UHGV virus genome: UHGV-0230427
From: a virus
DNA: 24,355 nucleotides
Reading direction: 5' to 3' (one strand)
Shown: positions 95 through 24,268 of the stretch, in pieces
Position numbering within the stretch: position 1 is the first letter of the stretch
Layout: the number at the start of each line of letters is the position of its first letter
The notes under the pieces: generated by a model
What the model saw: the letters and a program-made list of their open reading frames with translations, nothing else
What the model was told of the DNA's origin: nothing
The model's database searches: none
Position numbers and translations under genes: made by a program

Positions 95-367
95 TCATCT
101 TGCTGTCAGTTGTTTGGATTTCCGGTAGCCTGCCGCGTAAAGAGCTACGTTCGGAAGACAAGTTGAGCCTTCATATTTTCTGGTCAACGTTGTCAGTGTT
201 ATTACTTCTGCTCTCATTGCTGGTTTGCGCTTGCATTGCAAGACCACTCGAGAGGGGGTTGGTCTGTGTAGCTTGTCGGAGCTAATCGCCTCCTGACTTT
301 GCAGGTTTGCGCGACGAGCTCTACGACGAGAAGCTGAGGTGCCTTTAAATTCTGTTTTTCTGGACAT
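95..367 (-). CDS. N: N-type transcription antitermination protein (P22 gene 24-like)
   Basis: Minus-strand ORF; C-terminus ...VALYAAGYRKSKQLTAR matches recalled P22 gp24 C-terminus; Arg-rich motif (SASRRRARRAN) directly after the proposed Met start; GGAGG RBS (rc of 373-378) 5 nt upstream of the ATG at 367. The ORF track extends to 451 but the RBS and ARM position favour 367. Confidence 0.6.
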   Translation of the reverse strand: MSRKTEFKGTSASRRRARRANLQSQEAISSDKLHRPTPSRVVLQCKRKPAMRAEVITLTTLTRKYEGSTCLPNVALYAAGYRKSKQLTAR

Positions 368-466
368 AGATTCCTCCCGAATAAACTTTGGTGATGCAAT
401 CTCGAAGCTCCTCCTGAGACGGTTGCTTCGGCATTGCATCCCACAGCTCATGTGGTTGTGTGATCT

Positions 467-2723: not shown

Positions 2724-2769
2724 CGCTCTTTGTAACAACGGACATTCGTCCTACGTCGCTGAAAAGCGA
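2724..2769 (+). promoter_or_regulatory. nutR candidate: boxA-like CGCTCTTTGTAACAACG (2724-2740) and boxB-like hairpin TCGCTGAAAAGCGA (2756-2769)
   Basis: Between cro and cII; same block structure and spacing as the nutL candidate; the small hairpin between the boxes (GGAC..GTCC here, TCGA..TCGA in nutL) is preserved by compensatory changes. Confidence 0.5.
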
Positions 2770-2854: not shown

Positions 2855-3151
2855 ATGGAACAAACAAGTTACAGCAAACTATCACAGCGTGACGTTGATC
2901 GCGCAGAAACAGATTTACTCATCAACCTGTCAACGCTTACCCAGCGTGGTCTGGCAAAGATGATTGGCTGTCATGAATCGAAGATAAGCAGAACGGACTG
3001 GCGGTTTATTGCTTCGGTCTTGTGTGCTTTCGGAATGGCATCAGACATCAGTCCAATTAGCAGGGCTTTTAAGTATGCGCTTGATGGAATCACAAAGAAA
3101 AAACGCCCGGCGGCAACCGAGCGTTCTGAACAAATCCAGATGGAGTTCTGA
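2855..3151 (+). CDS. cII: CII transcriptional activator
   Basis: 98-aa ORF; C-terminus KKRPAATERSEQIQMEF matches recalled lambda CII; internal HTH-like segment; position between cro and O. Confidence 0.9.
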   Translation: MEQTSYSKLSQRDVDRAETDLLINLSTLTQRGLAKMIGCHESKISRTDWRFIASVLCAFGMASDISPISRAFKYALDGITKKKRPAATERSEQIQMEF

Positions 3152-3183: not shown

Positions 3184-4083
3184 ATGACAAATACAGCAAA
3201 AATACTCAACTTCGGCAGAGGTAACTTTGCCGGACAGGAGCGTAATGTGGCAGATCTCGATGATGGTTACGCCAGACTATCAAATATGCTGCTTGAGGCT
3301 TATTCAGGCGCAGATCTGACCAAGCGACAGTTTAAAGTGCTGCTTGCCATTCTGCGTAAAACCTATGGGTGGAATAAACCAATGGACAGAATCACCGATT
3401 CTCAACTTAGCGAGATTACAAAGTTACCCGTCAAACGGTGCAATGAAGCCAAGTTAGAACTCGTCAGAATGAATATTATCAAGCAGCAAGGCGGCATGTT
3501 TGGACCAAATAAAAACATCTCAGAATGGTGTATCCCTCAAAACGAGGGAAAATCCCCTAAAACGAGGGATAAAACATCCCTCAAATTGGGGGATTGCTAT
3601 CCCTCAAAACAGGGGGACACAAAAGACACTATTACAAAAGAAAAAAGAAAAGATTATTCGTCCGAGAATTCTGGCGAATCCTCTGACCAGCCAGAAAACG
3701 ATCTTTCTGTGGTTAAACCGGATGCTGCAATTCAGAGCGGCAGCAAGTGGGGAACAGCAGAAGACCTGACCGCCGCAGAGTGGATGTTTGACATGGTGAA
3801 GACCATCGCGCCATCAGCCAGAAAACCGAATTTTGCTGGGTGGGCTAACGATATCCGCCTGATGCGTGAACGTGACGGACGTAACCACCGCGATATGTGT
3901 GTGCTTTTCCGCTGGGCCTGCCAGGACAACTTCTGGTCCGGTAACGTGCTGAGTCCGGCCAAACTCCGCGACAAGTGGACCCAGCTCGAAATCAACCGTA
4001 ACAAGCAACAGGCAGGCGTGACAGCCAGCAAACCAAAACTCGACCTGACAAACACTGACTGGATTTACGGGGTGGATTTATGA
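3184..4083 (+). CDS. O: Replication initiator protein O
   Basis: 299-aa protein near-identical over its length to recalled lambda O (MTNTAKILNFGRGNFAGQERNVADLDDGYARLSNMLLEAYSG...); AGGAG RBS; contains the ori iterons. Confidence 0.95.
   Translation: MTNTAKILNFGRGNFAGQERNVADLDDGYARLSNMLLEAYSGADLTKRQFKVLLAILRKTYGWNKPMDRITDSQLSEITKLPVKRCNEAKLELVRMNIIKQQGGMFGPNKNISEWCIPQNEGKSPKTRDKTSLKLGDCYPSKQGDTKDTITKEKRKDYSSENSGESSDQPENDLSVVKPDAAIQSGSKWGTAEDLTAAEWMFDMVKTIAPSARKPNFAGWANDIRLMRERDGRNHRDMCVLFRWACQDNFWSGNVLSPAKLRDKWTQLEINRNKQQAGVTASKPKLDLTNTDWIYGVDL
3531..3660 (+). repeat. ori-lambda: four direct iterons (3531-3618) followed by an AT-rich unwinding region (3619-3660), inside O
   Basis: Repeated units ATCCCTCAAAACGAGGGA / ATCCCCTAAAACGAGGGA / ATCCCTCAAATTGGGGGA / ATCCCTCAAAACAGGGGGA, each with internal dyad symmetry, then an A-rich tract (ACAAAAGAAAAAAGAAAAG). 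Confidence 0.85.
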
Positions 4084-4781
4084 AAAACATCGCCGCACAG
4101 ATGGTTAACTTTGACCGTGAGCAGATGCGTCGGATCGCCAACAACATGCCGGAACAGTACGACGAAAAGCCGCAGGTACAACAGGTAGCGCAGATCATCA
4201 ACGGTGTGTTCAGCCAGTTACTGGCAACTTTCCCGGCGAGCCTGGCTAACCGTGACCAGAACGAACTGAACGAAATCCGCCGCCAGTGGGTTCTGGCTTT
4301 CCGGGAAAACGGGATCACCACAATGGAACAGGTTAACGCAGGAATGCGCGTAGCCCGTCGGCAGAATCGACCATTTCTGCCATCACCCGGGCAGTTTGTT
4401 GCATGGTGCCGGGAAGAAGCATCCGTTATCGCCGGACTGCCAAACGTCAGCGAGCTGGTTGATATGGTTTACGAGTATTGCCGGAAGCGAGGCCTGTATC
4501 CGGATGCGGAGTCTTATCCGTGGAAATCAAACGCGCACTACTGGCTGGTTACCAACCTGTATCAGAACATGCGGGCCAATGCGCTTACTGATGCGGAATT
4601 ACGCCGTAAGGCCGCAGATGAGCTTGTCCATATGACTGCGAGAATTAACCGTGGTGAGTCGATCCCTGAACCAGTAAAACAACTTCCTGTCATGGGCGGT
4701 AGACCTCTAAATCGTGCACAGGCTCTGGCGAAGATCGCAGAACTCAAAGCTAAGTTCGGACTGAAAGGAGCAAGTGTATGA
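4080..4781 (+). CDS. P: Replication protein P (DnaB helicase loader)
   Basis: 233-aa protein matching recalled lambda P; start overlaps the O stop (ATGA coupling). Confidence 0.95.
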   Translation: MKNIAAQMVNFDREQMRRIANNMPEQYDEKPQVQQVAQIINGVFSQLLATFPASLANRDQNELNEIRRQWVLAFRENGITTMEQVNAGMRVARRQNRPFLPSPGQFVAWCREEASVIAGLPNVSELVDMVYEYCRKRGLYPDAESYPWKSNAHYWLVTNLYQNMRANALTDAELRRKAADELVHMTARINRGESIPEPVKQLPVMGGRPLNRAQALAKIAELKAKFGLKGASV

Positions 4782-5068
4782 CGGGCAAAGAGGCAATTAT
4801 TCATTACCTGGGGACGCATAATAGCTTCTGTGCGCCGGACGTTGCCGCGCTAACAGGCGCAACAGTAACCAGCATAAATCAGGCCGCGGCTAAAATGGCA
4901 CGGGCAGGTCTTCTGGTTATCGAAGGTAAGGTCTGGCGAACGGTGTATTACCGGTTTGCTACCAAGGAAGAACGGGAAGGAAAGATGAGCACGAACCTAA
5001 TTTTTAAGGAGTGTCGCCAGAGTGCCGCGATGAAACGGGTATTGGCGGTATATGGAGTTAAAAGATGA
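4778..5068 (+). CDS. ren: Ren protein
   Basis: 96-aa ORF overlapping the P stop; sequence (MTGKEAIIHYLGTHNSFCAPDVAALTGATVTSINQAAAKMARAGL...) matches recalled lambda Ren. Confidence 0.85.
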   Translation: MTGKEAIIHYLGTHNSFCAPDVAALTGATVTSINQAAAKMARAGLLVIEGKVWRTVYYRFATKEEREGKMSTNLIFKECRQSAAMKRVLAVYGVKR

Positions 5069-5093
5069 CCATCTACATCACTGAGCTAATAAC

Positions 5094-5125
5094 AGGCCTG
5101 CTGGTAATCGCAGGCCTTTTTATTT
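5094..5125 (+). terminator. tR2-like Rho-independent terminator
   Basis: Perfect 8-bp stem AGGCCTGC (5094-5101) pairing with GCAGGCCT (5110-5117), 8-nt loop, followed by TTTTTATT; 25 nt after the ren stop, the expected place for tR2. Confidence 0.6.
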
Positions 5126-5140
5126 GGGGGAGAGTAAATC

Positions 5141-5467
5141 GTGGCTGACTGGCAAATACCAATCATCATTCTTGCCGGAGCTTCGCTGGTTGCTGGCTTT
5201 ATCCTGCTGAAGAAGCATAAAGACCGTGATCAAAAAGTCGAAGTTCTCTATGGGTATCCGGCGAACAGCACAACATGGCTGACTATTTACCACTACCGAA
5301 AATCAGGCCGTTGGGTATTCGAATGGGATGATCTGTTTGCTGAAAAGCGACCAAAGTCATGGGGAGACATCAGCGAATGCATGATGTTTGAAGAAAGAAA
5401 ATCCGGCGCAACCCGAGAAGAGTTTAACGAAGTGTGGAGGCGATTAAGTGAGAGGGGGTATCAATGA
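5141..5467 (+). CDS. Hypothetical small membrane protein (GTG start)
   Basis: 108-aa ORF; GGGGGAGAG RBS-like run at 5125-5133; predicted N-terminal transmembrane helix (IPIIILAGASLVAGFILL) followed by a basic stretch; no lambda counterpart recalled at this position. Confidence 0.5.
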   Translation: MADWQIPIIILAGASLVAGFILLKKHKDRDQKVEVLYGYPANSTTWLTIYHYRKSGRWVFEWDDLFAEKRPKSWGDISECMMFEERKSGATREEFNEVWRRLSERGYQ

Positions 5468-5489
5468 GCAGAATTAAGTCGAGGTAACA

Positions 5490-5936
5490 ATGAAGCAAAT
5501 ATACATGCTTCGCAACGAAGCAATCAGAAACAACGCCATAGACGCAATACTCTCACTTCCGATCGACGACAAGTCACCTCACGAAGTCCACATTAAAGAA
5601 CCCAGGCGGAGCAATCCTCAAAACCGCCTTATGTGGGCGTTATTGCAGGACGTATCACGTCAGGTGCTTTGGCATGGAAAGAGACTTGCGCCGGAGGACT
5701 GGAAAGATCTGTTCACTGCCCTGTGGCTTAAGACCAAAAAACTGGAGCAACGAAGTGCGCCTGGTATCGACGGTGGCGTTGTCATGCTTGGCGTGCGTAC
5801 CAGCAAAATGCGAAAGGCCAGCATGACTGAGCTTATCGAAATCATGTTCTGGTTCGGCTCAGAGCGCAACGTGCGGTGGAGTGATGACTCCCGGCGAGAG
5901 TATGAATGGTCACAACGAAAAGGTAGGGCTGCATGA
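5490..5936 (+). CDS. ninB: NinB (Orf-family recombination mediator)
   Basis: 148-aa ORF with motifs recalled from lambda NinB (QNRLMWALLQDVSRQVLWHGKRL...WSDDSRREYEW); first gene of the nin region. Confidence 0.8.
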   Translation: MKQIYMLRNEAIRNNAIDAILSLPIDDKSPHEVHIKEPRRSNPQNRLMWALLQDVSRQVLWHGKRLAPEDWKDLFTALWLKTKKLEQRSAPGIDGGVVMLGVRTSKMRKASMTELIEIMFWFGSERNVRWSDDSRREYEWSQRKGRAA

Positions 5937-6460
5937 CTATCAAATCAAATACGCCAGCACACGACAAGGACTGCTGGCAAACGCCGCTTTGGCTTTTTGA
6001 TGCACTGGATATTGAGTTTGGATTCTGGCTGGATTCGGCAGCGAGCGACAAAAATGCTCTGTGCGCTCACTGGCTAACTGAGGCTGACGACGCGCTAAAT
6101 TCTGAGTGGGTAAGCCACGGTGCAATCTGGAATAACCCACCGTACAGCAATATCAGGCCGTGGGTGGAAAAAGCCGCTGAGCAGTGTATACAACAACGAC
6201 AGACGGTAGTGATGCTTGTGCCAGAGGATATGTCAGTCGGATGGTTCAGCAAGGCTCTGGAGAGTGTCGACGAAGTTCGTATTATCACTGATGGACGGAT
6301 TAATTTTGTCGAACCATCGACAGGACTGGAGAAGAAGGGAAACAGCAAAGGTTCCATGCTGCTGATTTGGCGACCGTTCATCAGTTCTCGACGGATGTTT
6401 ACTACTGTATCCAAAGCGGCATTGATGGCGATCGGGCAGGGCGTCAGGAGGGCAGCATGA
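5933..6460 (+). CDS. Phage N6-adenine DNA methyltransferase (Dam-like, orphan)
   Basis: 175-aa ORF with NPPY catalytic motif (IWNNPPYSN) and size typical of the phage Dam-type N6-adenine MTase family; overlaps ninB stop and ninE start; no adjacent restriction endonuclease gene. Confidence 0.8.
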
Positions 6461-8510: not shown

Positions 8511-8695
8511 ACGCCACAATTCAAACGATACCAGAGCTTCTTATCCAGACACGAGGCAATCAGACCGAAGTGGCGAGGATGCTTTCCTGCGCAAGAGGAA
8601 CAGTGCTCAAGTACAACCGAGACAGCAAAGGCGAGCGTCACGTAATAGTTAACGGCGTCCTGATGGTCAAACAGGGCAAAAGGGGAAGGCCATGA
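8507..8695 (+). CDS. ninH: NinH
   Basis: 62-aa ORF; KTIPELL...GNQTEVARML.C.RGTV.KY...VNGVLMV pattern matches recalled lambda NinH. Confidence 0.8.
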   Translation: MNATIQTIPELLIQTRGNQTEVARMLSCARGTVLKYNRDSKGERHVIVNGVLMVKQGKRGRP

Positions 8696-9315
8696 GACTC
8701 GAAAGCGTAGCTAAATTTCATTCGCCAAAAAGCCCGATGATGAGCGACTCACCACGGGCTACGGCTTCTGACTCTCTTTCCGGTACTGATGTGATGGCTG
8801 CTATGGGGATGGCGCAATCACAAGCCGGATTCGGAATGGCTGCATTCTGCGGTAAGCATGAACTCAGCCAGAACGACAAACAAAAGGCTATCAACTATCT
8901 GATGCAATTTGCACACAAGGTATCGGGGAAATACCGTGGCGTTGCAAAGCTTGAAGGAAATACTAAGGCAAAGGTACTGCAAGTGCTCGCAACATTCGCT
9001 TATGCGGATTATTGCCGTAGTGCCGCGACGCCGGGCGCAAGATGCAGAGATTGTCACGGTACAGGCCGTGCGGTTGATATAGCAAAAACAGAGCAGTGGG
9101 GGAGAGTTGTTGAGAAAGAATGCGGAAGATGCAAAGGTGTCGGCTATTCAAAGATGCCAGCAAGCGCCGCATATCGCGCTGTGACGATGCTAATCCCAAA
9201 CCTTACCCAACCCACCTGGTCACGCACTGTTAAGCCGCTGTATGACGCTCTGGTGGTGCAATGCCACAAGGAAGAGTCAATCGCAGACAGCATTTTGAAT
9301 GCGGTCACACGTTAG
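8692..9315 (+). CDS. Q: Late-gene antiterminator Q (lambda type)
   Basis: 207-aa protein matching recalled lambda Q essentially throughout (MRLESVAKFHSPKSPMMSDSPRATASDSLSG...), including the zinc-binding CRDCHGTG...CGRCKG motifs. Confidence 0.95.
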   Translation: MRLESVAKFHSPKSPMMSDSPRATASDSLSGTDVMAAMGMAQSQAGFGMAAFCGKHELSQNDKQKAINYLMQFAHKVSGKYRGVAKLEGNTKAKVLQVLATFAYADYCRSAATPGARCRDCHGTGRAVDIAKTEQWGRVVEKECGRCKGVGYSKMPASAAYRAVTMLIPNLTQPTWSRTVKPLYDALVVQCHKEESIADSILNAVTR

Positions 9316-12478: not shown

Positions 12479-12904
12479 ATGGCGACTGAGAAAAAGAAAG
12501 GTGGTCGCCCCTCTGATTATATGCCGGAGGTGGCTAATGACATTTGCGCATTGCTTTCCTCCGGTGAGAGTCTGCGCAAAGTTTGCGAACGCCCAGGAAT
12601 GCCGAGCAAAACATCAGTTTTTCGCTGGCTGGCTGAACATCAGGAGTTTCGTGACCAGTACGCGAAGGCAACAGAGACTCGGGCCGACTCTATTTTCGAA
12701 GAGATATTCGAAATTGCTGACGACGTAATCCCTGATGCCGCCGAGGTGGCAAAGGCAAGACTTCGCGTTGATACCCGCAAATGGGCGCTGGCCAGAATGA
12801 ATCCCCGTAAGTATGGCGACAAGGTAACTAATGAGCTTGTCGGCAAAGACGGAGGCGCAATTCAGATTGAAACATCACCGATGAGCACTCTATTCGGAAA
12901 ATGA
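12479..12904 (+). CDS. Terminase small subunit (Sf6 gp1-like)
   Basis: 141-aa ORF immediately upstream of and overlapping the large terminase; N-terminal HTH-like region; resembles recalled Sf6-type TerS. Confidence 0.8.
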   Translation: MATEKKKGGRPSDYMPEVANDICALLSSGESLRKVCERPGMPSKTSVFRWLAEHQEFRDQYAKATETRADSIFEEIFEIADDVIPDAAEVAKARLRVDTRKWALARMNPRKYGDKVTNELVGKDGGAIQIETSPMSTLFGK

Positions 12905-14316
12905 CCTCGATTAATCCTATCTTTGAACCGTTCATTGAGGCGCATCGCTACAAAGTCGCCAAAGGCGGTCGAGGTAGCGGTAAGTCATGGGCAATTGCTA
13001 GGCTGCTTGTTGAAGCGGCGCGTCGGCAGCCTGTGCGTATTCTCTGCGCTCGTGAACTGCAAAACAGTATCAGCGATTCGGTAATCCGGTTGCTTGAAGA
13101 TACCATCGAGCGGGAAGGGTATTCGGCTGAGTTTGAAATTCAGCGTTCCATGATTCGTCATCTCGGAACGAATGCTGAGTTCATGTTCTACGGCATCAAA
13201 AACAACCCGACGAAGATTAAATCGCTCGAAGGCATTGATATCTGCTGGGTGGAAGAAGCGGAAGCGGTAACGAAGGAATCATGGGATATCCTGATACCAA
13301 CCATCCGCAAGCCGTTCTCTGAAATATGGGTGAGCTTTAACCCGAAGAACATACTCGACGATACCTATCAGCGATTCGTTGTAAATCCTCCCGATGATAT
13401 TTGTCTGCTGACGGTGAACTACACCGACAACCCGCACTTTCCTGAAGTTCTCCGTCTGGAGATGGAAGAGTGTAAACGCAGAAACCCGACACTGTATCGT
13501 CACATCTGGCTTGGTGAGCCAGTGAGCGCAAGTGATATGGCAATCATCAAACGTGAATGGCTTGAAGCTGCAACCGATGCGCACAAGAAACTCGGATGGA
13601 AAGCGAAAGGCGCGGTTGTTTCTGCACATGACCCGTCAGATACAGGGCCAGATGCTAAAGGTTACGCATCGCGTCACGGTTCGGTGGTTAAGCGCATTGC
13701 CGAAGGTCTGCTGATGGACATCAACGATGGTGCTGACTGGGCTACTTCGCTGGCAATTGAAGACGGCGCTGACCATTACCTGTGGGATGGTGATGGTGTT
13801 GGTGCCGGGCTACGCAGACAGACAACGGAAGCGTTCTCCGGCAAGAAAATCACCGCCACGATGTTCAAGGGCAGCGAATCGCCATTCGATGAAGATGCAC
13901 CGTATCAGGCCGGAGCATGGGCTGATGAAGTCGTACAGGGCGACAACGTTCGCACTATTGGCGATGTATTCCGCAATAAGCGAGCGCAATTCTATTACGC
14001 GCTGGCTGACAGGCTTTATCTGACATATCGGGCGGTTGTCCACGGTGAGTATGCAGACCCCGACGACATGCTGAGTTTCGACAAAGAAGCGATAGGCGAG
14101 AAGATGCTGGAGAAGCTGTTTGCAGAACTGACGCAGATTCAGCGCAAATTCAATAACAACGGGAAGCTGGAGCTTATGACTAAGGTCGAAATGAAGCAGA
14201 AGCTCGGTATTCCATCTCCTAACCTGGCTGATGCGCTGATGATGTGTATGCATTGCCCGGAGTCGGCTGCGCAACCCGACTATTCCAGTTACTCAATTCC
14301 TTGTGGTGTAGGTTGA
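12901..14316 (+). CDS. Terminase large subunit
   Basis: 471-aa ORF; Walker A-like motif (VAKGGRGSGKSWA) near the N-terminus, acidic nuclease-domain residues C-terminally; ATGA overlap with TerS. Confidence 0.95.
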   Translation: MTSINPIFEPFIEAHRYKVAKGGRGSGKSWAIARLLVEAARRQPVRILCARELQNSISDSVIRLLEDTIEREGYSAEFEIQRSMIRHLGTNAEFMFYGIKNNPTKIKSLEGIDICWVEEAEAVTKESWDILIPTIRKPFSEIWVSFNPKNILDDTYQRFVVNPPDDICLLTVNYTDNPHFPEVLRLEMEECKRRNPTLYRHIWLGEPVSASDMAIIKREWLEAATDAHKKLGWKAKGAVVSAHDPSDTGPDAKGYASRHGSVVKRIAEGLLMDINDGADWATSLAIEDGADHYLWDGDGVGAGLRRQTTEAFSGKKITATMFKGSESPFDEDAPYQAGAWADEVVQGDNVRTIGDVFRNKRAQFYYALADRLYLTYRAVVHGEYADPDDMLSFDKEAIGEKMLEKLFAELTQIQRKFNNNGKLELMTKVEMKQKLGIPSPNLADALMMCMHCPESAAQPDYSSYSIPCGVG

Positions 14317-14317
14317 T

Positions 14318-16516
14318 ATGGCAGAAAAAAAGATGACTGACTGGCATCGCAAGGTGCTGTGCAACTTTGATAATGCCTGGTCAGCAACGCAGGATATGCG
14401 TGAGCAGATTATTGAGGCTCAACGTTTCGTCCGGGTATCCGGCGCACAGTGGGAAGGCAGCACAAACGCTGGTTACTCATTTGATGAAGGCAGGTTTGAG
14501 CATTACCCGCGCTTTGAACTGAATAAGATTGCCCGTGAATGTGATCGCATCATTGGCGAGTATCGACAGAATCGCATTAGCGTTAAATTCAGGCCGAAGG
14601 ATGACAAGGCATCGGAAGCGTTAGCCGAAAAGATGAACGGCAAATTCCGCGCTGACTATCAGGAAACATCCGGTGGCGAAGCGTGTGATAACGCATTTGA
14701 TGATGCTGTAACGGGCGGATTCGGTTGTTTCCGCATGTGTGCCGATTACGAAGATGAAATGGATCCGAGTAACGAGCAGCGCCGCATCAGCCTTCTTCCT
14801 GTTTACGACCCAGCGACATGCGTCTTCTTCGATCAGGACAGCAAGCAATATGACCGTTCTGATGCTATGTGGGCTATGGAAATGTTCTCCATGACGCCTA
14901 AAGCGTTCGAGGCTGAATACCCTGATTCCATCGCGGCAGGCCTTTCTCGTGATGGCACTGGCACTCAATATGACTGGTCAACGCCAGATGCCATCTATGT
15001 TGGGCGCTACTACGAAGTTCGCATAGAGAAGGTGAAGCTCACGGCGTGGCGCAACCCTGTTAGCGGAGAAACGGCAATCTATGATGAAGATCAAATCAAA
15101 GATATTGTCGACGAGCTGACCGATGGCGCATTCGAACTGATTGGCGAGCGGACAGTGAAGAAACGCCGCGTTTATTGCGGTCTTCTGTCTGGCGCTGAAT
15201 GGCTGGAAGAACCGAAGCGTATTCCGGGTGAACATATTCCTCTCATCCCGGTATATGGGCGTCGCTCATTTGTTGATAATCAGGAGCGAATCGAAGGCCA
15301 CGCTGCAAAAGCGATGGATGCACAGCGTCTTGAGAACCTGATGGTTTCCATGATTGCAGATAACGCTACTCAGGCTGGCGGTGATGGCATTCCTATCGTG
15401 GATGTTGATTTCATTCCCGGTCCATTAATGAATCACTGGGCAGAGAGGAATAAGAAAAGACCTGCAGTTCTTCCCATGACCAGCAAGAAGGACAAAAACG
15501 GAACGGTCATTTCAGAGGCTCAGGTTGCTGGCTGGACACCTCCGACACAAATGCCTCCTGCTCTTGCCGGGCTATTGCAGTACACCGGAACGGCTATTCA
15601 GCAAATTACAGGTGCGTCGCAGCTTGAGAACATGCCGAGCAACGTCGCCACCGATACCGTTGATAGCATTTTTAACCGGATGGATACGCAGTCCTATATC
15701 TACATGGACAACATGGCTAAATCCATGCGTCGCGCTGGCGTCGTGTGGCTTTCTATGGCACGTGAGGTCTATGGCAGTGATACGCCGATGCGTATCGTTA
15801 ATGAGGACGGCAGCGATGACGTGGCGCTGATGACTGGTGAAGTGGTTGACCGTCAGACAGGGCAGGTTATCGCGCTTAATGACCTTTCGCAGGGCAACTA
15901 TGAAGTGACTGTCGATGTCGGTCAGTCGTTCGCTACTCGCCGTGATGCAACGGTTAAGTCGTTACTTTCCATGCTGGCACTTATCCCACCAGGAACGCCG
16001 AAGCACGACCTTGTATCGTCGATGATTCTCGACAATATGGACGGCGAAGGGATGGACGATCTGAAAGAATACAACCGCAATCAGTTGCTTCTGTCTGGCG
16101 TTATCAAGCCGAGAACGCCTGAAGAACAGCAGATGGTTGAACAGGCGAAACAACAACAGGCCAGTCAGCCAGATCCGGCTATGGTTGCAGCGCAAGGTCA
16201 GCTTCTTGCTGGTCAGGCTGAATTGCAGAAAGCGCAGAACGAACAGGCAGCCATTCAGGTTAAAGCATTCCAGGCACAGACTGATGCTCAGGTTGCAGCG
16301 GCAAACGTTGTGAAAATCCTCGCATCTGCCGATAGCCAGCAGAAATCTGATATCCGCGAGGCTCTGAAACTGCTCGGACAGTTCCAGCAACAGCAAGGAG
16401 ACAATGCCCGTGCTGATGCAGAGCTTGTCCTGAAAAGTCAGGCACAGGGCCATGCGCAGCGCATGGACATCAGCAGCATCCTGCAAAAATCAACCCGGCA
16501 ACAACCACAGCAGTAA
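14318..16516 (+). CDS. Portal protein (P22 gp1-like)
   Basis: 732-aa ORF; multiple blocks shared with recalled P22 portal (RRVY, GEHIPLIPVYG, PDPAMVAAQGQLLAGQAELQKAQN, QRMDISSILQ) including the C-terminal Gln/Ala-rich barrel region. Confidence 0.95.
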   Translation: MAEKKMTDWHRKVLCNFDNAWSATQDMREQIIEAQRFVRVSGAQWEGSTNAGYSFDEGRFEHYPRFELNKIARECDRIIGEYRQNRISVKFRPKDDKASEALAEKMNGKFRADYQETSGGEACDNAFDDAVTGGFGCFRMCADYEDEMDPSNEQRRISLLPVYDPATCVFFDQDSKQYDRSDAMWAMEMFSMTPKAFEAEYPDSIAAGLSRDGTGTQYDWSTPDAIYVGRYYEVRIEKVKLTAWRNPVSGETAIYDEDQIKDIVDELTDGAFELIGERTVKKRRVYCGLLSGAEWLEEPKRIPGEHIPLIPVYGRRSFVDNQERIEGHAAKAMDAQRLENLMVSMIADNATQAGGDGIPIVDVDFIPGPLMNHWAERNKKRPAVLPMTSKKDKNGTVISEAQVAGWTPPTQMPPALAGLLQYTGTAIQQITGASQLENMPSNVATDTVDSIFNRMDTQSYIYMDNMAKSMRRAGVVWLSMAREVYGSDTPMRIVNEDGSDDVALMTGEVVDRQTGQVIALNDLSQGNYEVTVDVGQSFATRRDATVKSLLSMLALIPPGTPKHDLVSSMILDNMDGEGMDDLKEYNRNQLLLSGVIKPRTPEEQQMVEQAKQQQASQPDPAMVAAQGQLLAGQAELQKAQNEQAAIQVKAFQAQTDAQVAAANVVKILASADSQQKSDIREALKLLGQFQQQQGDNARADAELVLKSQAQGHAQRMDISSILQKSTRQQPQQ

Positions 16517-16606
16517 TTAACCCATAACGTGCAATGGCTGTCTTTATGAGGCCTGGCACCCTATTGCCTTCCGATGGGCTGAACATCGAGTAAACAGGGG
16601 TAACAA

Positions 16607-17500
16607 ATGGACCAGATGGCAGAAAACACACCAGAAGTTGAAATCGAAACCGACGCGTCAGAGCAGATTCCTGATGATGTCGAACTGGCTGAAGAAGTCG
16701 AAACAGAAGATGGCAGTGAGTCCTCCGGCAATGATGCAGAGGAAGCTACTGAAACTGATGACGACGAATCAGAACAGGAATTCTACTTTGGTGATGAAAA
16801 GCTGGATTCGCCAACCAGCGAAGATAGCGCAGAGCATGGACTGGTAAAACACCTGCGCAAGACGATTAAAGAGAAAGACCGCGAGCTGAAAGAGCTGATG
16901 CGTCAGTCTCAGAAACCCGTCGAGCAGCAGCCGGTAATCACTCAACCACCGCGAATGCCAAAACTGGATGATGAGGACATCGGTTTCGATGAAGAAATCT
17001 ATCAGCAACGCATGGCTAAGTGGGCAGAGGATAACGGCAAGTACCAGCAACAGGAGATGGCTCGCAAGCAGAAGGAGCAGGAGCTTCAGGCTGCTTATCA
17101 AGAGCGATTATCCAAATATCAGCAACGTGTTAAGGCTCTCAAGGTTCCTGGCTATCAGGAAGCAGAACAGGCCGTACTCGAGGAAATCCCCATCGAGACA
17201 CAAAACGCGATCCTGTTTGAGTCAGAGAAGCCGGAAATTGTTGTTCTGGCGCTTGGTCGCAACGCTGAACTGCGCAAGCAACTGGCAGAAGCTACCAACC
17301 CCGTAGCAATTGGTCGTCTGCTGGAACGTATCGAATCGAAGGCCAGAATCATGCCAAAAGCAAAAACCACGGCAGCCACAACCCCGACAGTTAAGGGGAG
17401 CAACGGCGCAGTAATCAACAACCTCGACAAATTGAAAGCCAAGGCGCTGGAAACTGGTGACTGGACGCCGTATTTCGCCGCTAAAAAGGCAAAAAAATAA
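16607..17500 (+). CDS. Scaffolding protein
   Basis: 297-aa highly acidic, coiled-coil-rich ORF between portal and coat, as in P22 gp8. Confidence 0.85.
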   Translation: MDQMAENTPEVEIETDASEQIPDDVELAEEVETEDGSESSGNDAEEATETDDDESEQEFYFGDEKLDSPTSEDSAEHGLVKHLRKTIKEKDRELKELMRQSQKPVEQQPVITQPPRMPKLDDEDIGFDEEIYQQRMAKWAEDNGKYQQQEMARKQKEQELQAAYQERLSKYQQRVKALKVPGYQEAEQAVLEEIPIETQNAILFESEKPEIVVLALGRNAELRKQLAEATNPVAIGRLLERIESKARIMPKAKTTAATTPTVKGSNGAVINNLDKLKAKALETGDWTPYFAAKKAKK

Positions 17501-17518
17501 CCTATCGGAGCATTAAGC

Positions 17519-18772
17519 ATGACTAACCAATTAGCAAAAGACCTTGAAATCATGTTCGAAAACTACGTTGAAGGCTTTGAGGCCGCCTGCGTAGTTTCCC
17601 GTAACGCTAAAAAATTCCGTCCCGGTGATACAGCAATGCAGCGAGCAGGTGATGTTCTGTATCGTCCGCAGCATTACCACATGAACATTGAGGAAGGCCT
17701 CGATCTCAGCAGCAAAACGCCAACAGCACTGGTTCAGCGCCTTGTTCCTTCTGTGTTCAAGGAGCCGAAAAACATTCTGTACACTCTGGATGCGCGTGAA
17801 ATGCGTGACCCGGAACATAAAACTGAAGCTGGTCGAGCCGCAGGTATGCGCCTTGCTGCACAGATTGACTCTGACCTGATTTCCATGGTCACGCAGCGTG
17901 CTACTAACGTGATCACAATGGCTGACTCAACCACTGGTTCACAGGGCCGTGATTTGTGGAACTGTGCGGCAGGTATTGATGCCACCATGACGGCGATTGG
18001 TGTACCACAGGGTATCAACCGCCGCTCTTTCTGGAACCCCTTCAACTACAAAGACCTTGCTGGCGAGCTTGGTCACCGTGCCTATGCTCAGGGCGCAACC
18101 CTGACAGCATACGAAAAAGCGCAGATCCCTCCGGTTGCGTCCTTCGATAGCTACAAGACGGATATTTCTGGTCGTGTTCCGAAGGGTGCAGCAACTTCCC
18201 TGACGCTGGCGGCTGAACCTGCGCACAAGGTTGAAGCGAAAGATGCCAACGATATGCCAGTGGATAACCGACAGGGGACTATTACGGTATCTGCATCTGG
18301 GTTGCAGGTTGGCGATGCGTTCACCATTGCTGGCGTGAATTCTGTACACCAGATCACCAAAGACACCACCGGGCAGCCGCAGGTATTCCGCGTTCTGGCA
18401 GTAAGCGGAACGACAGTAACTATCTCCCCGAAAATTCTGCCGCCTGACAACGCGGATGTCGCCAGCCGACCATATGCAAACGTTGATGCTAACGCGGCAA
18501 GTGGTGCAGCAATTACCATTCTCAACAAAAATGCCGCACCGGCTAACCTGTTCTGGGCTGATGGTTCTGTTGAACTGATGTACGGCAAACTGGCGTTCCC
18601 AACTGGTCAGGGTCCACAGGTAATGACGGCAACCACCGAGCAGGGCGCTACGCTGATCATGTCTTACGCCTTCGACCACATCAAAGGTGTAACCACTGCG
18701 CGTTTCACCACCCTGTACGGTTGCTCTGTACTTGTTCCTGAATATACGGGCATCGTTATTGCCGGGCAGTAA
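17519..18772 (+). CDS. Major capsid (coat) protein, P22 gp5-like
   Basis: 417-aa ORF in the canonical position; size and scattered motifs (NLFWADGSVEL, FRVLAVSG) consistent with P22-type coat; followed by a strong terminator. Confidence 0.9.
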   Translation: MTNQLAKDLEIMFENYVEGFEAACVVSRNAKKFRPGDTAMQRAGDVLYRPQHYHMNIEEGLDLSSKTPTALVQRLVPSVFKEPKNILYTLDAREMRDPEHKTEAGRAAGMRLAAQIDSDLISMVTQRATNVITMADSTTGSQGRDLWNCAAGIDATMTAIGVPQGINRRSFWNPFNYKDLAGELGHRAYAQGATLTAYEKAQIPPVASFDSYKTDISGRVPKGAATSLTLAAEPAHKVEAKDANDMPVDNRQGTITVSASGLQVGDAFTIAGVNSVHQITKDTTGQPQVFRVLAVSGTTVTISPKILPPDNADVASRPYANVDANAASGAAITILNKNAAPANLFWADGSVELMYGKLAFPTGQGPQVMTATTEQGATLIMSYAFDHIKGVTTARFTTLYGCSVLVPEYTGIVIAGQ

Positions 18773-18778
18773 TTTTGG

Positions 18779-18802
18779 TGGGGCTTCGGCCCCATTTTTA
18801 TT
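18779..18802 (+). terminator. Rho-independent terminator after the coat gene
   Basis: Stem TGGGGC (18779-18784) pairing with GCCCCA (18789-18794) around a TTCG tetraloop, followed by TTTTTATT; 7 nt after the coat stop. Confidence 0.7.
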
Positions 18803-18813
18803 GGGAGAAGACA

Positions 18814-19002
18814 ATGGCACGAACAATGCTCTATAAGCCTGGCAACATGATCACCTGTGGCCAGTTTGCTGTCGATTACATCATTGTTGATGACGAAGAA
18901 GTTAAATCTCACCTGAAAAAAGGCTGGGTAAAAACTCCTGAAGAAACCGCAACGAAGCATAAAGTGGCTAAGGCGGAAGAAGATGGCGAAAACGAAGGGT
19001 GA
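18814..19002 (+). CDS. Hypothetical small protein between coat and gp4
   Basis: 62-aa ORF (MARTMLYKPGNMITCGQFAVDY...) with GGGAGAAG RBS (18803-18810); the ORF track's upstream extension would run through the terminator hairpin. Confidence 0.55.
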   Translation: MARTMLYKPGNMITCGQFAVDYIIVDDEEVKSHLKKGWVKTPEETATKHKVAKAEEDGENEG

Positions 19003-19444
19003 TCTCGTTCTTAAGGCTTTACGAAAAGCCGGGCTGTATTCCAATGCCACGTTGACAGATGCTGACCCTCAGGCAATTGAAGATGCCATTAATGACCTCG
19101 AAGACATGATGGCAGCATGGCAGGCTAAAGGTATCGAGCTTGGATATCAGTTTGCTGATACAGAAAACGGCATCATGCCGTTACCTGACGATGATTCAGG
19201 TATCCCTGCATGGGCAAATGATGGCGTCGCTTTGAAACTCGCTGTGCAAGTGTGCATGGATAACGTCATTCAGCCGTCAGACGCTCTCCTTACCGCTGCT
19301 GACAGCGCATATCAGACAATCTGTATCGCTTTAACCAAAATACCACCACTTGAGCGGCGAAATGACATGCCTCGCGGTAGTGGTAACAAAAGCGCGTTTA
19401 CGTGGAATCGGTTTTACATCGAGAAAGATGATCCGAGTACGTGA
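18983..19444 (+). CDS. Head-completion / tail accessory factor gp4-like protein
   Basis: 153-aa ORF; N-terminal TKGDLV..ALRK.G..S.ATLTD..PQ...DA..DLE.MMA.W and C-terminal MPRGSGN match recalled P22 gp4. Confidence 0.85.
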   Translation: MAKTKGDLVLKALRKAGLYSNATLTDADPQAIEDAINDLEDMMAAWQAKGIELGYQFADTENGIMPLPDDDSGIPAWANDGVALKLAVQVCMDNVIQPSDALLTAADSAYQTICIALTKIPPLERRNDMPRGSGNKSAFTWNRFYIEKDDPST

Positions 19445-19453
19445 GGTGAATAA

Positions 19454-20872
19454 ATGCCGATTCAGCAACTTCCGCTTATGAAAGGTGTCGGCAAAGACTT
19501 TCGAAACGCCGACTATATCGACTATCTGCCAGTGAATATGCTGGCTACACCAAAAGAAATCCTTAACAGCAGCGGATATCTTCGCTCATTCCCGGGCATT
19601 GCCAAACGTTCTGATGTGAACGGTGTATCTCGCGGCGTCGAGTACAACATGGCGCAGAATGCTGTTTATCGTGTGTGTGGTGGCAAGCTGTACAAAGGAG
19701 AAAGTGAAGTCGGTGACGTTGCCGGAAGTGGTCGCGTATCAATGGCGCATGGTCGTATATCACAGGCGGTAGGGGTTAACGGGAAACTGGTCGAGTATCG
19801 CTATGATGGCACGATTAAAACCGTCTCAAACTGGCCTACAGACAGCGGATTCACGCAGTATGAGTTAGGTTCTGTTCGTGACATTACTCGTTTACGTGGG
19901 CGTTATGCGTGGTCAAAAGACGGAACTGATTCATGGTTTATCACTGACCTTGAAGACGAATCGCACCCTGACCGATACAGCGCACAATATCGTGCAGAGT
20001 CTCAGCCGGACGGCATCATCGGCATCGGAACATGGCGAGACTTCATCGTCTGCTTTGGTTCATCGACGATTGAATATTTCTCCCTGACTGGCGCAACCAC
20101 CGTTGGTGCTGCTTTGTATGTCGCACAGCCATCACTGATGGTGCAGAAAGGTATTGCCGGAACCTACTGCAAAACGCCGTTTGCTGATTCGTATGCGTTC
20201 ATCAGCAATCCGGCAACAGGTGCGCCGTCTGTGTACATCATCGGATCCGGTCAGGTATCACCAATCGCCAGCGCGAGCATTGAGAAAATCCTCCGCTCCT
20301 ACACTGCTGATGAACTGGCTGATGGCGTGATGGAATCGTTGCGGTTTGATGCTCATGAGTTGCTGATTATCCACCTTCCGCGCCATGTCCTCGTATACGA
20401 CGCATCTTCAAGCGCCAATGGTCCGCAATGGTGCGTACTGAAAACAGGACTGTATGACGATGTGTACCGCGCTATCGACTTCATTTACGAAGGCAATCAG
20501 ATAACGTGCGGCGATAAACTGGAGTCCGTGACCGGGAAATTGCAATTCGACATCAGCAGCCAGTACGACAAGCAACAGGAACACCTGTTGTTTACTCCGT
20601 TGTTCAAAGCAGATAACGCCAGAGTTTTCGACCTTGAAGTTGAATCGTCAACTGGCGTTGCTCAGTACGCTGACCGCCTTTTTCTCTCTGCAACCACTGA
20701 CGGCATAAATTACGGTCGTGAGCAGATGATTGAGCAGAATGAACCGTTCGTTTACGACAAGCGTGTTTTGTGGAAGCGAGTCGGGCGCATCAGGAAAAAT
20801 GTCGGCTTCAAATTGCGCGTTATCACGAAGTCACCTGTCACTCTGTCTGGCGCTCAGATAAGGATTGAGTAA
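19454..20872 (+). CDS. Tail hub / head-completion protein gp10-like
   Basis: 472-aa ORF closely matching recalled P22 gp10 along its length ([49 protein letters not shown]...). Confidence 0.95.
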
Positions 20873-21720
20873 TGGCGGATTCGAATCTCAATGTGCCGGT
20901 AATCATTCAGGCTACACGGCTCGACACATCAGTCCTTCCACGCAATATCTTCTCGCAGTCGTATCTGCTTTACGTTATCGCACAGGGCACTGATGTTGGT
21001 AACGTGGCTAACAAGGCCAACGAGGCCGGACAGGGCGCTTATGATGCACAGGTCAGGAACGATGAGCAGGATGTGATTCTCGCTGACCATGAGCAGCGAA
21101 TTTCTGCTGCGGAAGCAACGCTTGTTAATCATGAGGAGCGAATCAGCCAGGCAGAATCAACTCTTCAGGAACATGAAACACGAATAGCTCAGAATGAAAG
21201 CGATATTGCGTCGCTTGATACCAGAGTTCAGTCGCTGGAATCGCAGGTTTCAGACCATGAAACGCGCATCGATGCTCTGGAGTATGCCACTACTCGCAAA
21301 AAGTCGGAGGTTGTTTACTCTGGCGTATCAGTAACCATTCCGACAGCGCCGACCAACCTTGTTAACCTGCTGAAAACGCTCACGCCGTCATCCGGCACGT
21401 TGGCACCATTCTTCGACACCGTTAACAACAAGATGGTTGTGTTCAACGAGAACAAAACCTTGTTCTTCAAGCTGTCGATCGTCGGGACGTGGCCCAGCGG
21501 AACCGCCAACAGGTCAATGCAGCTAACCTTTTCCGGCTCTGTTCCTGACACACTGGTAAGCAGTCGCAACTCGGCGACAACGACCGATAACATCCTGTTA
21601 GCTACGTTCTTCAGCGTGGATAAAGACGGCTTTCTTGCCACAAATGGCAGCACGTTAACCATTCAGTCGAATGGTGCGTCGTTTACTGCCACAACCATCA
21701 AGATAATCGCGGAGCAGTAA
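20872..21720 (+). CDS. Tail needle gp26-like protein with extended C-terminal (knob-type) domain
   Basis: 282-aa ORF; N-terminal ~70 aa match recalled P22 gp26 ([35 protein letters not shown]); a central run of five 14-aa coiled-coil repeats ([14 protein letters not shown]-like); C-terminal ~130 aa unrelated to P22 and beta-rich in composition. Confidence 0.9.
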
Positions 21721-22175
21721 TGATTCAGTTCAAACCAACGCGAAACATCGACCTGATAGAAGCCGTGGGAAATCACCCCGACATTATCACCGGGAGCAAC
21801 AACGGTGATGGATACGACTACAAGCCTGAATGCCGTTACTTCGAGGTGAACGTGCACGGGCAGTTCGGCGGCATTGTTTACTATCAGGAGATTCAGCCGC
21901 TGACATTCGATTGCCACGCCATGTACCTGCCAGAGATTCGCGGATTCAGCAAGGAAATCGGGCTGGCGTTCTGGCGATACATTCTGACTAACACCACCGT
22001 TCAGTGCGTAACATCGTTCGCTGCACGCAAATTCCGCCACGGTCAGATGTACTGCGCAATGATTGGCCTTAAGCGTGTAGGAACCATCAAGAAATACTTC
22101 AAAGGCGTGGATGACGTGACTTTTTACAGCGCCACACGCGAAGAACTAATCGACTTCCTGAATCACGGGAGATAG
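21720..22175 (+). CDS. gp14-like virion assembly protein
   Basis: 151-aa ORF in the position of P22 gene 14 between the needle and ejection-protein genes; assigned by synteny and size. Confidence 0.7.
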   Translation: MIQFKPTRNIDLIEAVGNHPDIITGSNNGDGYDYKPECRYFEVNVHGQFGGIVYYQEIQPLTFDCHAMYLPEIRGFSKEIGLAFWRYILTNTTVQCVTSFAARKFRHGQMYCAMIGLKRVGTIKKYFKGVDDVTFYSATREELIDFLNHGR

Positions 22176-22177
22176 CC

Positions 22178-22870
22178 ATGTTATATGCATTTAAGCTGGG
22201 CAGAAAACTGCGCGGCGAGGAACCTTATTGCCCTGAAAAGGGTGGGAAAGGTGGCAGCTCTGATAAAAGCGCAAAGTATGCAGCAGAAGCTCAGAAGTAT
22301 GCCGCAGACCTGCAAAATCAGCAGTGGCAGACGATCATGAAAAACCTTGCTCCGTTCACGCCTCTTGCGGAGCAGTATGTTAACCAGCTTCAGAACCTTT
22401 CCAGTTTAGAAGGTCAGGGGCAGGCACTTAATCAGTATTACAACTCTCAGCAGTATGAAGACCTTGCAGGTCAGGCTCGTTACCAGAGTCTTGCTGCTGC
22501 AGAGGCTACGGGAGGACTTGGTTCGACAGCCACAAGCAATCAACTGGCCACGATCGCGCCGACTCTCGGTCAGTCTTGGTTATCAAACCAGATGAGCAAT
22601 TACAACAATCTGGCAAACGTTGGGCTTGGTGCGCTGCAAGGTCAGGCAAACGCCGGGCAGACGTACGCCAACAACATGAGCAGCATTGCACAGCAAAGCG
22701 CAGCTCTTGCCGCTGCTAATGCCAACAAACCATCAAGTCTTCAGACAGCAATTAGTGGCGGAACGTCCGGTGCGATTGCCGGTGCAGGTCTTGCCAGCCT
22801 TTTGGGAACATCAACACCTTGGGGCGCTGGCATTGGTGCTGGTATCGGATTGCTTGGCTCGTTGTTTTAA
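22178..22870 (+). CDS. Ejection (internal virion) protein gp7-like
   Basis: 230-aa Gln/Ala/Gly-rich ORF with a Gly-rich hydrophobic C-terminus, matching the size and position of P22 gp7. Confidence 0.8.
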   Translation: MLYAFKLGRKLRGEEPYCPEKGGKGGSSDKSAKYAAEAQKYAADLQNQQWQTIMKNLAPFTPLAEQYVNQLQNLSSLEGQGQALNQYYNSQQYEDLAGQARYQSLAAAEATGGLGSTATSNQLATIAPTLGQSWLSNQMSNYNNLANVGLGALQGQANAGQTYANNMSSIAQQSAALAAANANKPSSLQTAISGGTSGAIAGAGLASLLGTSTPWGAGIGAGIGLLGSLF

Positions 22871-22879
22871 GGGGTAATC

Positions 22880-24268
22880 ATGGCTACTTGGCAAGGATCA
22901 AATGGCGGATTGTTGGCTGGTATCGGTGGCGTCAACTCAAACGCTCCGAACGTAAATGACATCGGCAATACGCTTCAGCTTATCAGGCAGAACAATGATA
23001 TTGAGCGTTCAGGCGCTAACAATGTTGGGCTGACTGCTTTGCAAGGCCTTTCAGGTATTGCGGGGGTGTTTCAGCAGGAAAAGCAGGCTCAGCGGCAGAA
23101 AGAATTTCAGCAGGCATACGCTAATGCTTATGCGTCTGGTGATCGCGGTGCTTTGCGTCAGTTGGCTACTCAATATCCAGACCAGATTGAATCCGTTCGT
23201 AAAGGCATGGGATTCATTGATGAAGAGCAGCGTAATTCTATCGGCACCTTAGCAGCTGGCGCACGCCTTGCGGCCTCGTCTCCAGAAGCAATGCAATCAT
23301 GGCTGCAAAACAACGCCAAGGAACTGACTCGCGTCGGTGTTGACCCTAATAACGTTGCTCAGATGTATCAGCAGAATCCTTCAGGATTTGGTGAGTTTGT
23401 TGATCACCTTGGAATGGCTGCTCTTGGTCCGATTGATTACTTCAATGTTCAGGACAAGATGGCTGGTCGTGAAATTGACCGAGGCAGACTGGCAGAGACA
23501 ATCCGCAGCAATCAGGCCGGAGAGGCGCTAACAGCACGAGGTCAAAACATCACGATGCGCGGTCAGGATTTATCTGCTTCTACTGCGCGACGCGGGCAGG
23601 ATTTGGCAATGCAGCGAGCGTCAACAAGAGGAACCGCTGGGAATGACGAGCGTACAGTTCAGTTATCAGATGGCAGAACTGTAACGGTAGGCGGGAAGCT
23701 TCACGGCGCTGGGGCTAATGCGTTCTACGAAGGCATCGACAACGAGGGGAATATGGTTCGCGTTCCTGCCAGTTCAATCGCAGCGCCTGCAACATCGTCT
23801 GCATCAGCACAAAACTATGCCATGAAGAAGGATATCGACGCGATCGCAAATGCAGACGCTTCTGCTCTCGATTTCATGACAGGAATGACCGGCGGTGCAG
23901 GTAACCCGGCAATTGGTGCTGATGTTCGCAGCCGATTAACAGGAAAAGAGCAGCGCCAGTTATATAACTCAGCACAACGTATTCAGGGAAGAATGCAGAA
24001 TCAGGGCGTGGCGGCAGCAAGGGACATGGGTGCCAGTGGTATTAACACCGTTGCAGAAGCGAAGATGTATTTTCAGGGGATGCCGCAGGTTGACTATTCA
24101 AGCCCGGAGGCTATGCAGCAGTCGATTCGTGAAATTCAGGAATACACCAACAATTACAACCAACAATATAACGTTAATGTTGGTAAATCTCAGCGGCAGC
24201 AATCTCAACCTGCACAGGTATCACAGCCAGCAGCCAGCAGTAACTTTTCTTCACTATGGGGTGATTAA
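22880..24268 (+). CDS. Ejection protein gp20-like
   Basis: 462-aa ORF with the position, size and composition of P22 gp20. Confidence 0.8.

Follow-up and report, generated by a model that had tools for sequence, protein, structure and literature searches.

The window analysed here is a stretch of 24,355 nucleotides from UHGV virus genome UHGV-0230427, within which a short open reading frame (ORF) lies behind a terminator resembling tR2 of phage lambda. The question raised by this locus is whether the frame represents a genuine gene, how it came to occupy this position and what its product might do during infection. The best whole-phage matches of the window were E212, CUS-3, Kapi1 and phiv205-1 (56–71% coverage), and its late region (12479–24268) holds P22-like virion genes, namely those for the terminase, a 732-aa portal protein, the scaffold, the coat and the ejection proteins. 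Early genes of the lambda type were located for cII (2855–3151), O (3184–4083) and P (4080–4781), with ren (4778–5068, plus strand; PHROG 142 Ren-like, E 4e-42) being the last gene of the lambda-identical block. By these comparisons the window comes from a P22-like phage in which the O-P-ren block is lambda-identical.

The gene between tR2 and ninB

Downstream of ren, a terminator scan detected an intrinsic terminator at 5094–5125 (plus strand), consisting of a hairpin stem at 5094–5117 followed by a T-run (TTTTTATTT), with a hairpin folding energy of about −16 to −18 kcal/mol. Alignment with lambda showed this terminator to be tR2, base for base, and in Shigella phage Sf6 it is annotated as tR2 / boundary sequence bsq6. 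The ORF listing and homology placed a 108-aa gene of the Sf6 gene 46 / PHROG 5903 family at 5141–5467 (plus strand), with ninB beginning at 5490, which bears out the first-pass annotation of a GTG-start ORF between a tR2-like terminator and ninB. That annotation gave the feature as 5094–5467; the end is right, but the start takes in the terminator and the gene proper occupies 5141–5467 only.

In-frame stops lie upstream at 5087, 5090, 5105 and 5135, and no alternative start codon occurs ahead of residue 81, which is the next methionine, so that the GTG at 5141 is the sole start that preserves the conserved protein. A Shine-Dalgarno sequence, GGGGGAGAG (5126–5134, plus strand), lies 8 nt 5' of this GTG and, from the alignment with lambda, is the same ribosome-binding site as that used by lambda for ninB. 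A minus-strand ORF of 57 aa (5120–5293) was dismissed because the pattern of codon-position variation fits the plus frame.

A hydrophobic ninA-like ORF of 27 codons was also read from the sequence across tR2 (5065–5148, plus strand), and its counterpart is annotated as gene 45 / NinA in Sf6 and HK630, with Sf6 gene 45 being a 27-aa product annotated as 'similar to phage 21 NinA'. The start of this ORF overlaps the ren stop (ATGA) and its TGA (5146–5148) overlaps the GTG from which the 108-aa gene begins (GTGGCTGA), and through these overlaps translational coupling of the 108-aa gene to the ninA-like ORF may be possible. Lambda had been described as passing from ren through tR2 directly into ninB. 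The 108-aa gene is indeed extra in comparison with lambda, but the passage is not direct, as lambda has a ninA ORF (26–27 codons) across tR2 just as the window does. It should also be noted that in rare genomes (P0001, P0002, P0004 and P0006, and two of the 80 loci described below) a change of frame fuses the ninA-like ORF to the 108-aa gene, giving proteins of 133–137 aa with two hydrophobic helices.

The GTG start was present and the frame intact at all of 80 related IMG/VR viral loci, including three which had been missed by the pattern search (L068, L074 and L082). The ORF measured 108 aa at 79 of these loci and 106 aa at the other, so the annotated ORF is conserved and uninterrupted at these related loci. 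Across 45 distinct alleles, the variable sites at codon positions 1, 2 and 3 numbered 17, 8 and 31, respectively, with a pN/pS of 0.18. The protein matched PHROG 5903 over its full length (E 3.9e-75, residues 1–108 on profile positions 1–108 of 108), and 39 divergent relatives all matched phrog_5903 as well. A word-index search returned 58 relatives, and an exhaustive profile HMM search of 1.84 billion representative proteins returned 37 clusters (50% identity) and no domain fusions, the members being 73–133 aa in length with the exception of two longer matches. These two (3,904 aa and 380 aa) were discounted, having matched via repeated short stretches, and the 380-aa protein is a tandem repeat.

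The alternative that the frame is a chance ORF or a non-coding spacer after the terminator, to which practically no credence can be attached, could draw on the GTG start and on the lack of a Pfam family. Against this stand a conserved family which forms 37 clusters at 50% identity, the low pN/pS, the conserved start and length, a confidently predicted fold (see below) and the result of an Rfam scan, which gave nothing above threshold over the region and a sub-threshold Trp_leader match over the terminator only. The conservation data have already refuted this alternative, and by the same measures the 108-aa ORF can be taken as a genuine gene.

Copies of this gene have been catalogued before. 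The homology search found the full-length PHROG 5903 family with a near-identical member in Sf6, gene 46 (AAQ12235.1; 97% protein identity), which sits directly after tR2 / bsq6 and gene 45. Other copies are AMBK_59 of Salmonella phage vB_SosS_Oslo (97% protein identity) and a prophage gene of E. coli O127:H6 E2348/69 (WP_000796283.1, 'hypothetical protein'; 99.7% DNA identity), with the whole stretch of ren, the ORF and ninB being 99.9% identical to the E2348/69 prophage. The products of all three are 97–99% identical to that of the window gene, of the same length and from the same GTG start, and all three genes likewise open the nin region immediately behind tR2 / bsq6. They differ from the window allele at residue 98, which is V in the window and A in the three copies, and the next gene is ninB in the window, Oslo and E2348/69 but gene 47 in Sf6. 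This placement of the lambdoid PHROG 5903 members, as the opening gene of the nin region behind tR2, was found in the window and at most of the 80 loci, so that comparison of the ren–ninB interval places the gene consistently in its relatives.

The gene is carried by 108 of 5,426 complete E. coli genomes (~2%), where it is always annotated as 'hypothetical protein', and a literature search on the family by accession, PHROG number, ninA/ninB/tR2 and Sf6 gp46 found no functional study. From these matches, the gene appears as one already known, a catalogued accessory gene with a long-standing 'hypothetical' annotation. Some genomes (P0033, P0038, P0039 and P0049) carry frameshifted or truncated alleles, which indicates that the gene is dispensable for the prophage. 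In E. coli ZY22049 (NZ_CP103329.1 1458141–1458259, H135), the initial 119 nt of the gene run directly into sequence annotated as a 'packaged DNA stabilization gp4 family protein', apparently by a large internal deletion of the prophage.

Predicted membrane anchor and cytoplasmic domain

Hydropathy and AlphaFold2 both point to a transmembrane anchor at residues 6–23 (IPIIILAGASLVAGFILL; 5156–5209, plus strand), followed by the sequence KKHKDRDQK. The mean Kyte-Doolittle value of this segment is 2.5–2.6 and the AlphaFold2 helix spans residues 5–27. The N-terminal flank, MADWQ, has a net charge of −1 and the C-terminal flank is basic. Among 25 anchored relatives, the N-terminal flank was net positive in none, while the C-terminal flank was the more positive in 20, with the remaining five being without bias. 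By this charge bias, the topology would be N-out/C-in. The prediction of one N-terminal transmembrane helix with a cytoplasmic C-terminus is therefore supported by the hydropathy, the AlphaFold2 helix and the flank charges.

The C-terminal part had been described as a charged cytoplasmic tail. The cytoplasmic side agrees with the present analysis, but rather than a mere tail this part appears to be a folded, conserved domain, which was modelled by AlphaFold2 at residues 32–105 (5234–5455, plus strand) with a pLDDT of 91.6 and a pTM of 0.80. In this model the domain, of about 75 residues, begins with a three-stranded antiparallel beta meander, from which a long loop leads to a fourth strand and then to a C-terminal helix. 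Among close relatives YGYP, WLT.YH.R, FEWDDLF, RP and E94 are invariant, all of these being present in the window protein, whereas conservation of at least 90% across the 39 divergent members is limited to GYP, DDLF..RP and the initial Met. The DDLF...RP motif (residues 63–71; 5327–5353, plus strand), found in the loop after strand 3, is thus the most conserved motif family-wide, and in the model this loop is likely to represent an interaction surface.

Comparison with known families gave little. Pfam, NCBIfam and PADLOC scans of the 108-aa protein returned nothing significant, the best Pfam matches (FG-GAP_3, E 0.08; DUF2627, E 0.18) being under the cut-off and taken as noise. Pfam scans of the 39 divergent relatives gave single weak matches only, to DUF1660 (0.0025) and a RING finger (0.0087), both within a Cys-rich subfamily. 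A sequence-profile search of the PDB gave no matches at E ≤ 10, and Foldseek against the PDB with the full-length and domain models reached a best E of 0.8–0.9, over a 33-residue beta meander only. Foldseek against BFVD gave E values of 6e-8 and 2e-5, both to uncharacterised proteins of the phages Goslar and IME207.

Relatives of the domain were found outside the lambdoid phages, in the jumbo phage Goslar, the 112-kb phage KookSpook and the ~45-kb siphoviruses IME207, C1 and seszw. The homologues from the virulent phages Goslar (Goslar_00199), KookSpook (CDS0038) and IME207 (ANW46780.1) share GYP, WLTIY, FEWDDLF..RP and the C-terminal helix with the window protein, at 40–54% identity over the domain, although they lie in genomes and gene contexts unrelated to those of the lambdoid copies. 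They also differ in having no transmembrane helix; instead, a short, basic, amphipathic N-terminus is present with a hydrophobic moment of 0.65–0.72. It could be the domain, rather than the membrane, against which these amphipathic helices pack. The occurrence of anchor-less homologues in virulent phages indicates a cytoplasmic target.

In the Cys-rich subfamily (P0068, P0071–P0074, P0076, P0078, P0080, P0082 and P0086 in alignment A3), a CxxC replaces the YH.R hairpin and the N-terminus carries the motif C..G.HK. This arrangement suggests a small metal (zinc) site which would tie the N-terminus to the sheet. A further homologue was present in one of 185,579 species-representative genomes, on a scaffold of Pantoea gossypiicola (L096 2926–3243). 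This prophage copy lies in an early-left accessory region, by a gene with a Lar (restriction-alleviation) domain and genes for a LexA-like repressor, an excisionase and an integrase.

The orientation of the domain also bears on whether the N-terminal helix might be a cleavable or releasable signal, with the domain acting on the periplasmic side, where cell-wall or receptor functions could be among its targets. Signal-anchor-release segments carry several Gly, Ala and Ser residues, and so does this helix (LAGASLVAG). The positively charged n-region of Sec-type proteins is absent, however, with no positive charge ahead of the helix and a positive cluster after it, the homologues of virulent phages have no hydrophobic N-terminus at all, and the single cysteine (C80) is not invariant in the family, so that no disulfide pair is available. 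A periplasmic domain is thus regarded as very improbable, and the cytoplasmic placement is retained in what follows.

Mosaic surroundings and expression

Alignment of window positions 4001–5134 with lambda 39503–40636 showed 98.8% identity. This identity stops exactly at 5134, 7 nt ahead of the position of the lambda ninB ATG, which places a mosaic junction at 5134/5135 with the final lambda-shared bases lying within the Shine-Dalgarno sequence. The downstream ninB (5490–5936, plus strand; PF05772, E 4e-48) is a non-lambda allele and gave no blastn match to lambda ninB. The view that the gene had been inserted into the lambda arrangement was therefore not upheld, since the resemblance to lambda goes no further than 5134 and the next gene, ninB, is present as another allele. 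From the alignment, everything to the right of 5134, the ninB allele included, belongs to a different mosaic module.

The 80 IMG/VR loci also served as the sample for the mosaic comparison. Their homology to the window typically begins at 5064/5065, at the ninA ATG and the end of the upstream replication gene, and on the right it ends at 5461, 5477, 5500 or beyond. At least eight unrelated upstream gene ends were present, among them ren and several helicase or primase types, and these are separated from the GTG by a tR2 spacer of 72–77 nt. The 108-aa gene is nearly always the first after tR2; at eight loci, a gene for a 68-aa two-helix membrane protein lies between tR2 and the GTG. The downstream neighbour was an Sf6-gene-47-like gene at about 43 loci, a 78-aa gene at 23 and ninB at 11. 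In the window, a mini-ORF of seven codons, MSRIKSR* (5464–5487, plus strand), shares an ATGA with the stop of the 108-aa gene, and comparison with the downstream ORF MSRIKSGYPGNG... of 23 of the 80 loci identifies it as the 5' remnant of the 78-aa gene, a recombination scar ahead of ninB. Diverged homologues (58–66% identity) occupy the same place in other lambdoid prophages. Given the varied neighbours, the homology end points and the non-lambda ninB, the 108-aa gene can be described as an independently shuffling unit in a known mosaic hot spot. In line with this description, an analysis of neighbour conservation showed that the neighbours of the gene family are not conserved, and it provided no guilt-by-association clue.

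Other genes are found in the slot between tR2 and ninB. The 52/68-aa two-helix protein ending in VAVAKMAWRFVS (WP_000229807.1; HK630_052) fills it in HK630, E. coli E2865 and many Stx-type prophages, and was located at L005 1864–2070 and L003 1621–1779. This protein and NinA (26–27 aa) resemble the 108-aa protein in their slot, small size and hydrophobic helices, but their sequences are unrelated and they consist of membrane helices only, without the folded soluble domain of the 108-aa protein. Genes for small membrane proteins seem to accumulate in this slot.

As the gene directly follows replication genes in lambdoid phages (O/P, DnaB-type or primase-helicase), its product could be an accessory factor, tethering a component of the replisome or of recombination to the membrane or modulating it there, perhaps via DDLF. 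This would agree with the IME207 copy, which heads a helicase/exonuclease operon beside a primase/helicase gene, and with the copy on a 148-kb contig, which comes after DNA polymerase A. On the other hand, the upstream replication module varies freely, with at least eight types, so that the gene is not co-inherited with a particular replisome; the Pantoea copy is found in the early-left region, with xis/int and a Lar-like gene nearby; and the neighbours of the Goslar and KookSpook homologues are all unannotated. Replication genes are also simply the most recognisable of the early genes. The beta-clamp-binding consensus is QL[SD]LF, which DDLF recalls loosely, but DDLF has neither the Q of clamp-binding motifs nor their second hydrophobic position, and its reading as such a motif is weak speculation by analogy. 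A replication or recombination factor is for these reasons considered improbable.

With regard to expression, the N antiterminator gene was identified at 95–451 (minus strand; PF25694 N_peptide, E 8e-32), and what we take, from its resemblance to the lambda nut consensus, to be a nutR-like site lies between cro and cII (2725–2769, plus strand), with boxA CGCTCTTT and a boxB-like hairpin TCGCTGAAAAGCGA. The Q gene was located at 8692–9315, and the genes between tR2 and Q include those for NinB, Dam, NinX and a RusA-type protein. The 108-aa gene therefore lies between tR2 and Q in the pR operon of an N-encoding phage. No sigma-70 promoter-like site was found on either strand of 4600–6100 with a simple consensus scan, which a weak or activator-dependent promoter could escape. 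In lambda, transcription past P/ren is limited by tR2 in the absence of N (Cheng et al., 1995, cited in PMC8022706).

Owing to the tR2 identical to that of lambda, the N gene and the lack of a promoter-like site, the 108-aa gene should be delayed-early and silent in the lysogen. The pR transcript would reach it only once N lets RNA polymerase pass tR2, and translation would then proceed from the conserved GTG via the lambda ninB Shine-Dalgarno sequence, possibly coupled to the ninA-like ORF. Expression mainly after N-mediated antitermination, as put forward in the first-pass annotation, is thus well supported by inference from these elements and the nutR-like site.

This pattern of expression, as well as the structure of the protein, has to be considered with respect to superinfection exclusion, which the first-pass annotation had raised, together with host takeover, as a generic possibility for small single-pass membrane proteins of early operons. 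The early Imm protein of T4 blocks the DNA entry of phages arriving after infection has begun, and the anchored 108-aa protein might act similarly during the lytic cycle, being a small single-pass inner-membrane protein made early from a slot which repeatedly holds small membrane-protein genes (ninA and the 52/68-aa two-helix protein). In addition, the window phage is P22-like, and P22 SieA is a prophage-expressed inner-membrane protein that blocks injection and acts on the conduit formed by ejection proteins (PMC10461980). The 108-aa protein shares with SieA its inner-membrane location and its carriage by P22-like/lambdoid temperate phages (PMC10461980), but the sequences are unrelated and the conserved part of the 108-aa protein is cytoplasmic. 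SieA is moreover expressed from the prophage (PMC10461980), whereas the window gene lies behind tR2 in a repressed operon and, with no promoter-like site, should be lysogen-silent. The promoter outside repressor control that a SieA/SieB-type gene would use in the lysogen was not detected by the consensus scan, the gene being downstream of both pR and tR2. This position argues against prophage-expressed exclusion. As to exclusion during the lytic cycle, it is the cytoplasmic domain and not the anchor that is conserved, the homologues of virulent phages have no transmembrane helix, and no sequence match was obtained to known exclusion families or to annotated exclusion PHROGs, with a PHROGs scan at E ≤ 1 giving phrog_5903 alone. 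Lytic-cycle exclusion is accordingly judged unlikely.

Possible function and significance

On balance, and with moderate confidence, we favour the reading that the locus is a genuine accessory gene, not essential to the phage, within the rightward operon of the delayed-early phase, and that its product is a membrane-tethered cytoplasmic binder serving lytic growth and not prophage exclusion. The N-terminal helix would be inserted into the inner membrane, leaving the short acidic N-terminus on its outer side, and the domain of ~75 residues, made up of a beta sheet and a helix, would be held in the cytoplasm at the membrane surface. As the domain occurs without an anchor in virulent coliphages and the gene shuffles independently of its neighbours, it most likely acts alone, and it would bind a conserved enterobacterial (or phage) cytoplasmic partner via the DDLF..RP loop. 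Such a function would be of the host-takeover or counter-defence type of accessory function rather than prophage-expressed exclusion.

As it stands, the finding is one of routine lambdoid mosaicism, with one more accessory gene of the nin region. What is unusual is that the family is narrow (37 clusters among 1.84 billion proteins, all of them small) and has a confidently predicted fold without a solved relative, and that temperate and virulent enterobacterial phages share it while using alternative N-termini for membrane targeting. Other families of this kind have sometimes proved to be host-takeover or anti-defence effectors, which makes the 108-aa gene a reasonable, though not outstanding, candidate for functional screens. 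More tentatively, and with greater doubt than the reading favoured above, the domain may be an undescribed fold that acts at the membrane as an effector of host takeover or counter-defence, with a single conserved enterobacterial protein as its target, and is brought there by a transmembrane anchor in temperate lambdoid/P22-like phages and by an amphipathic helix in virulent T5-like, jumbo and Shuimuvirus phages. If this is the case, the identity of the target would define a new class of small phage effector.
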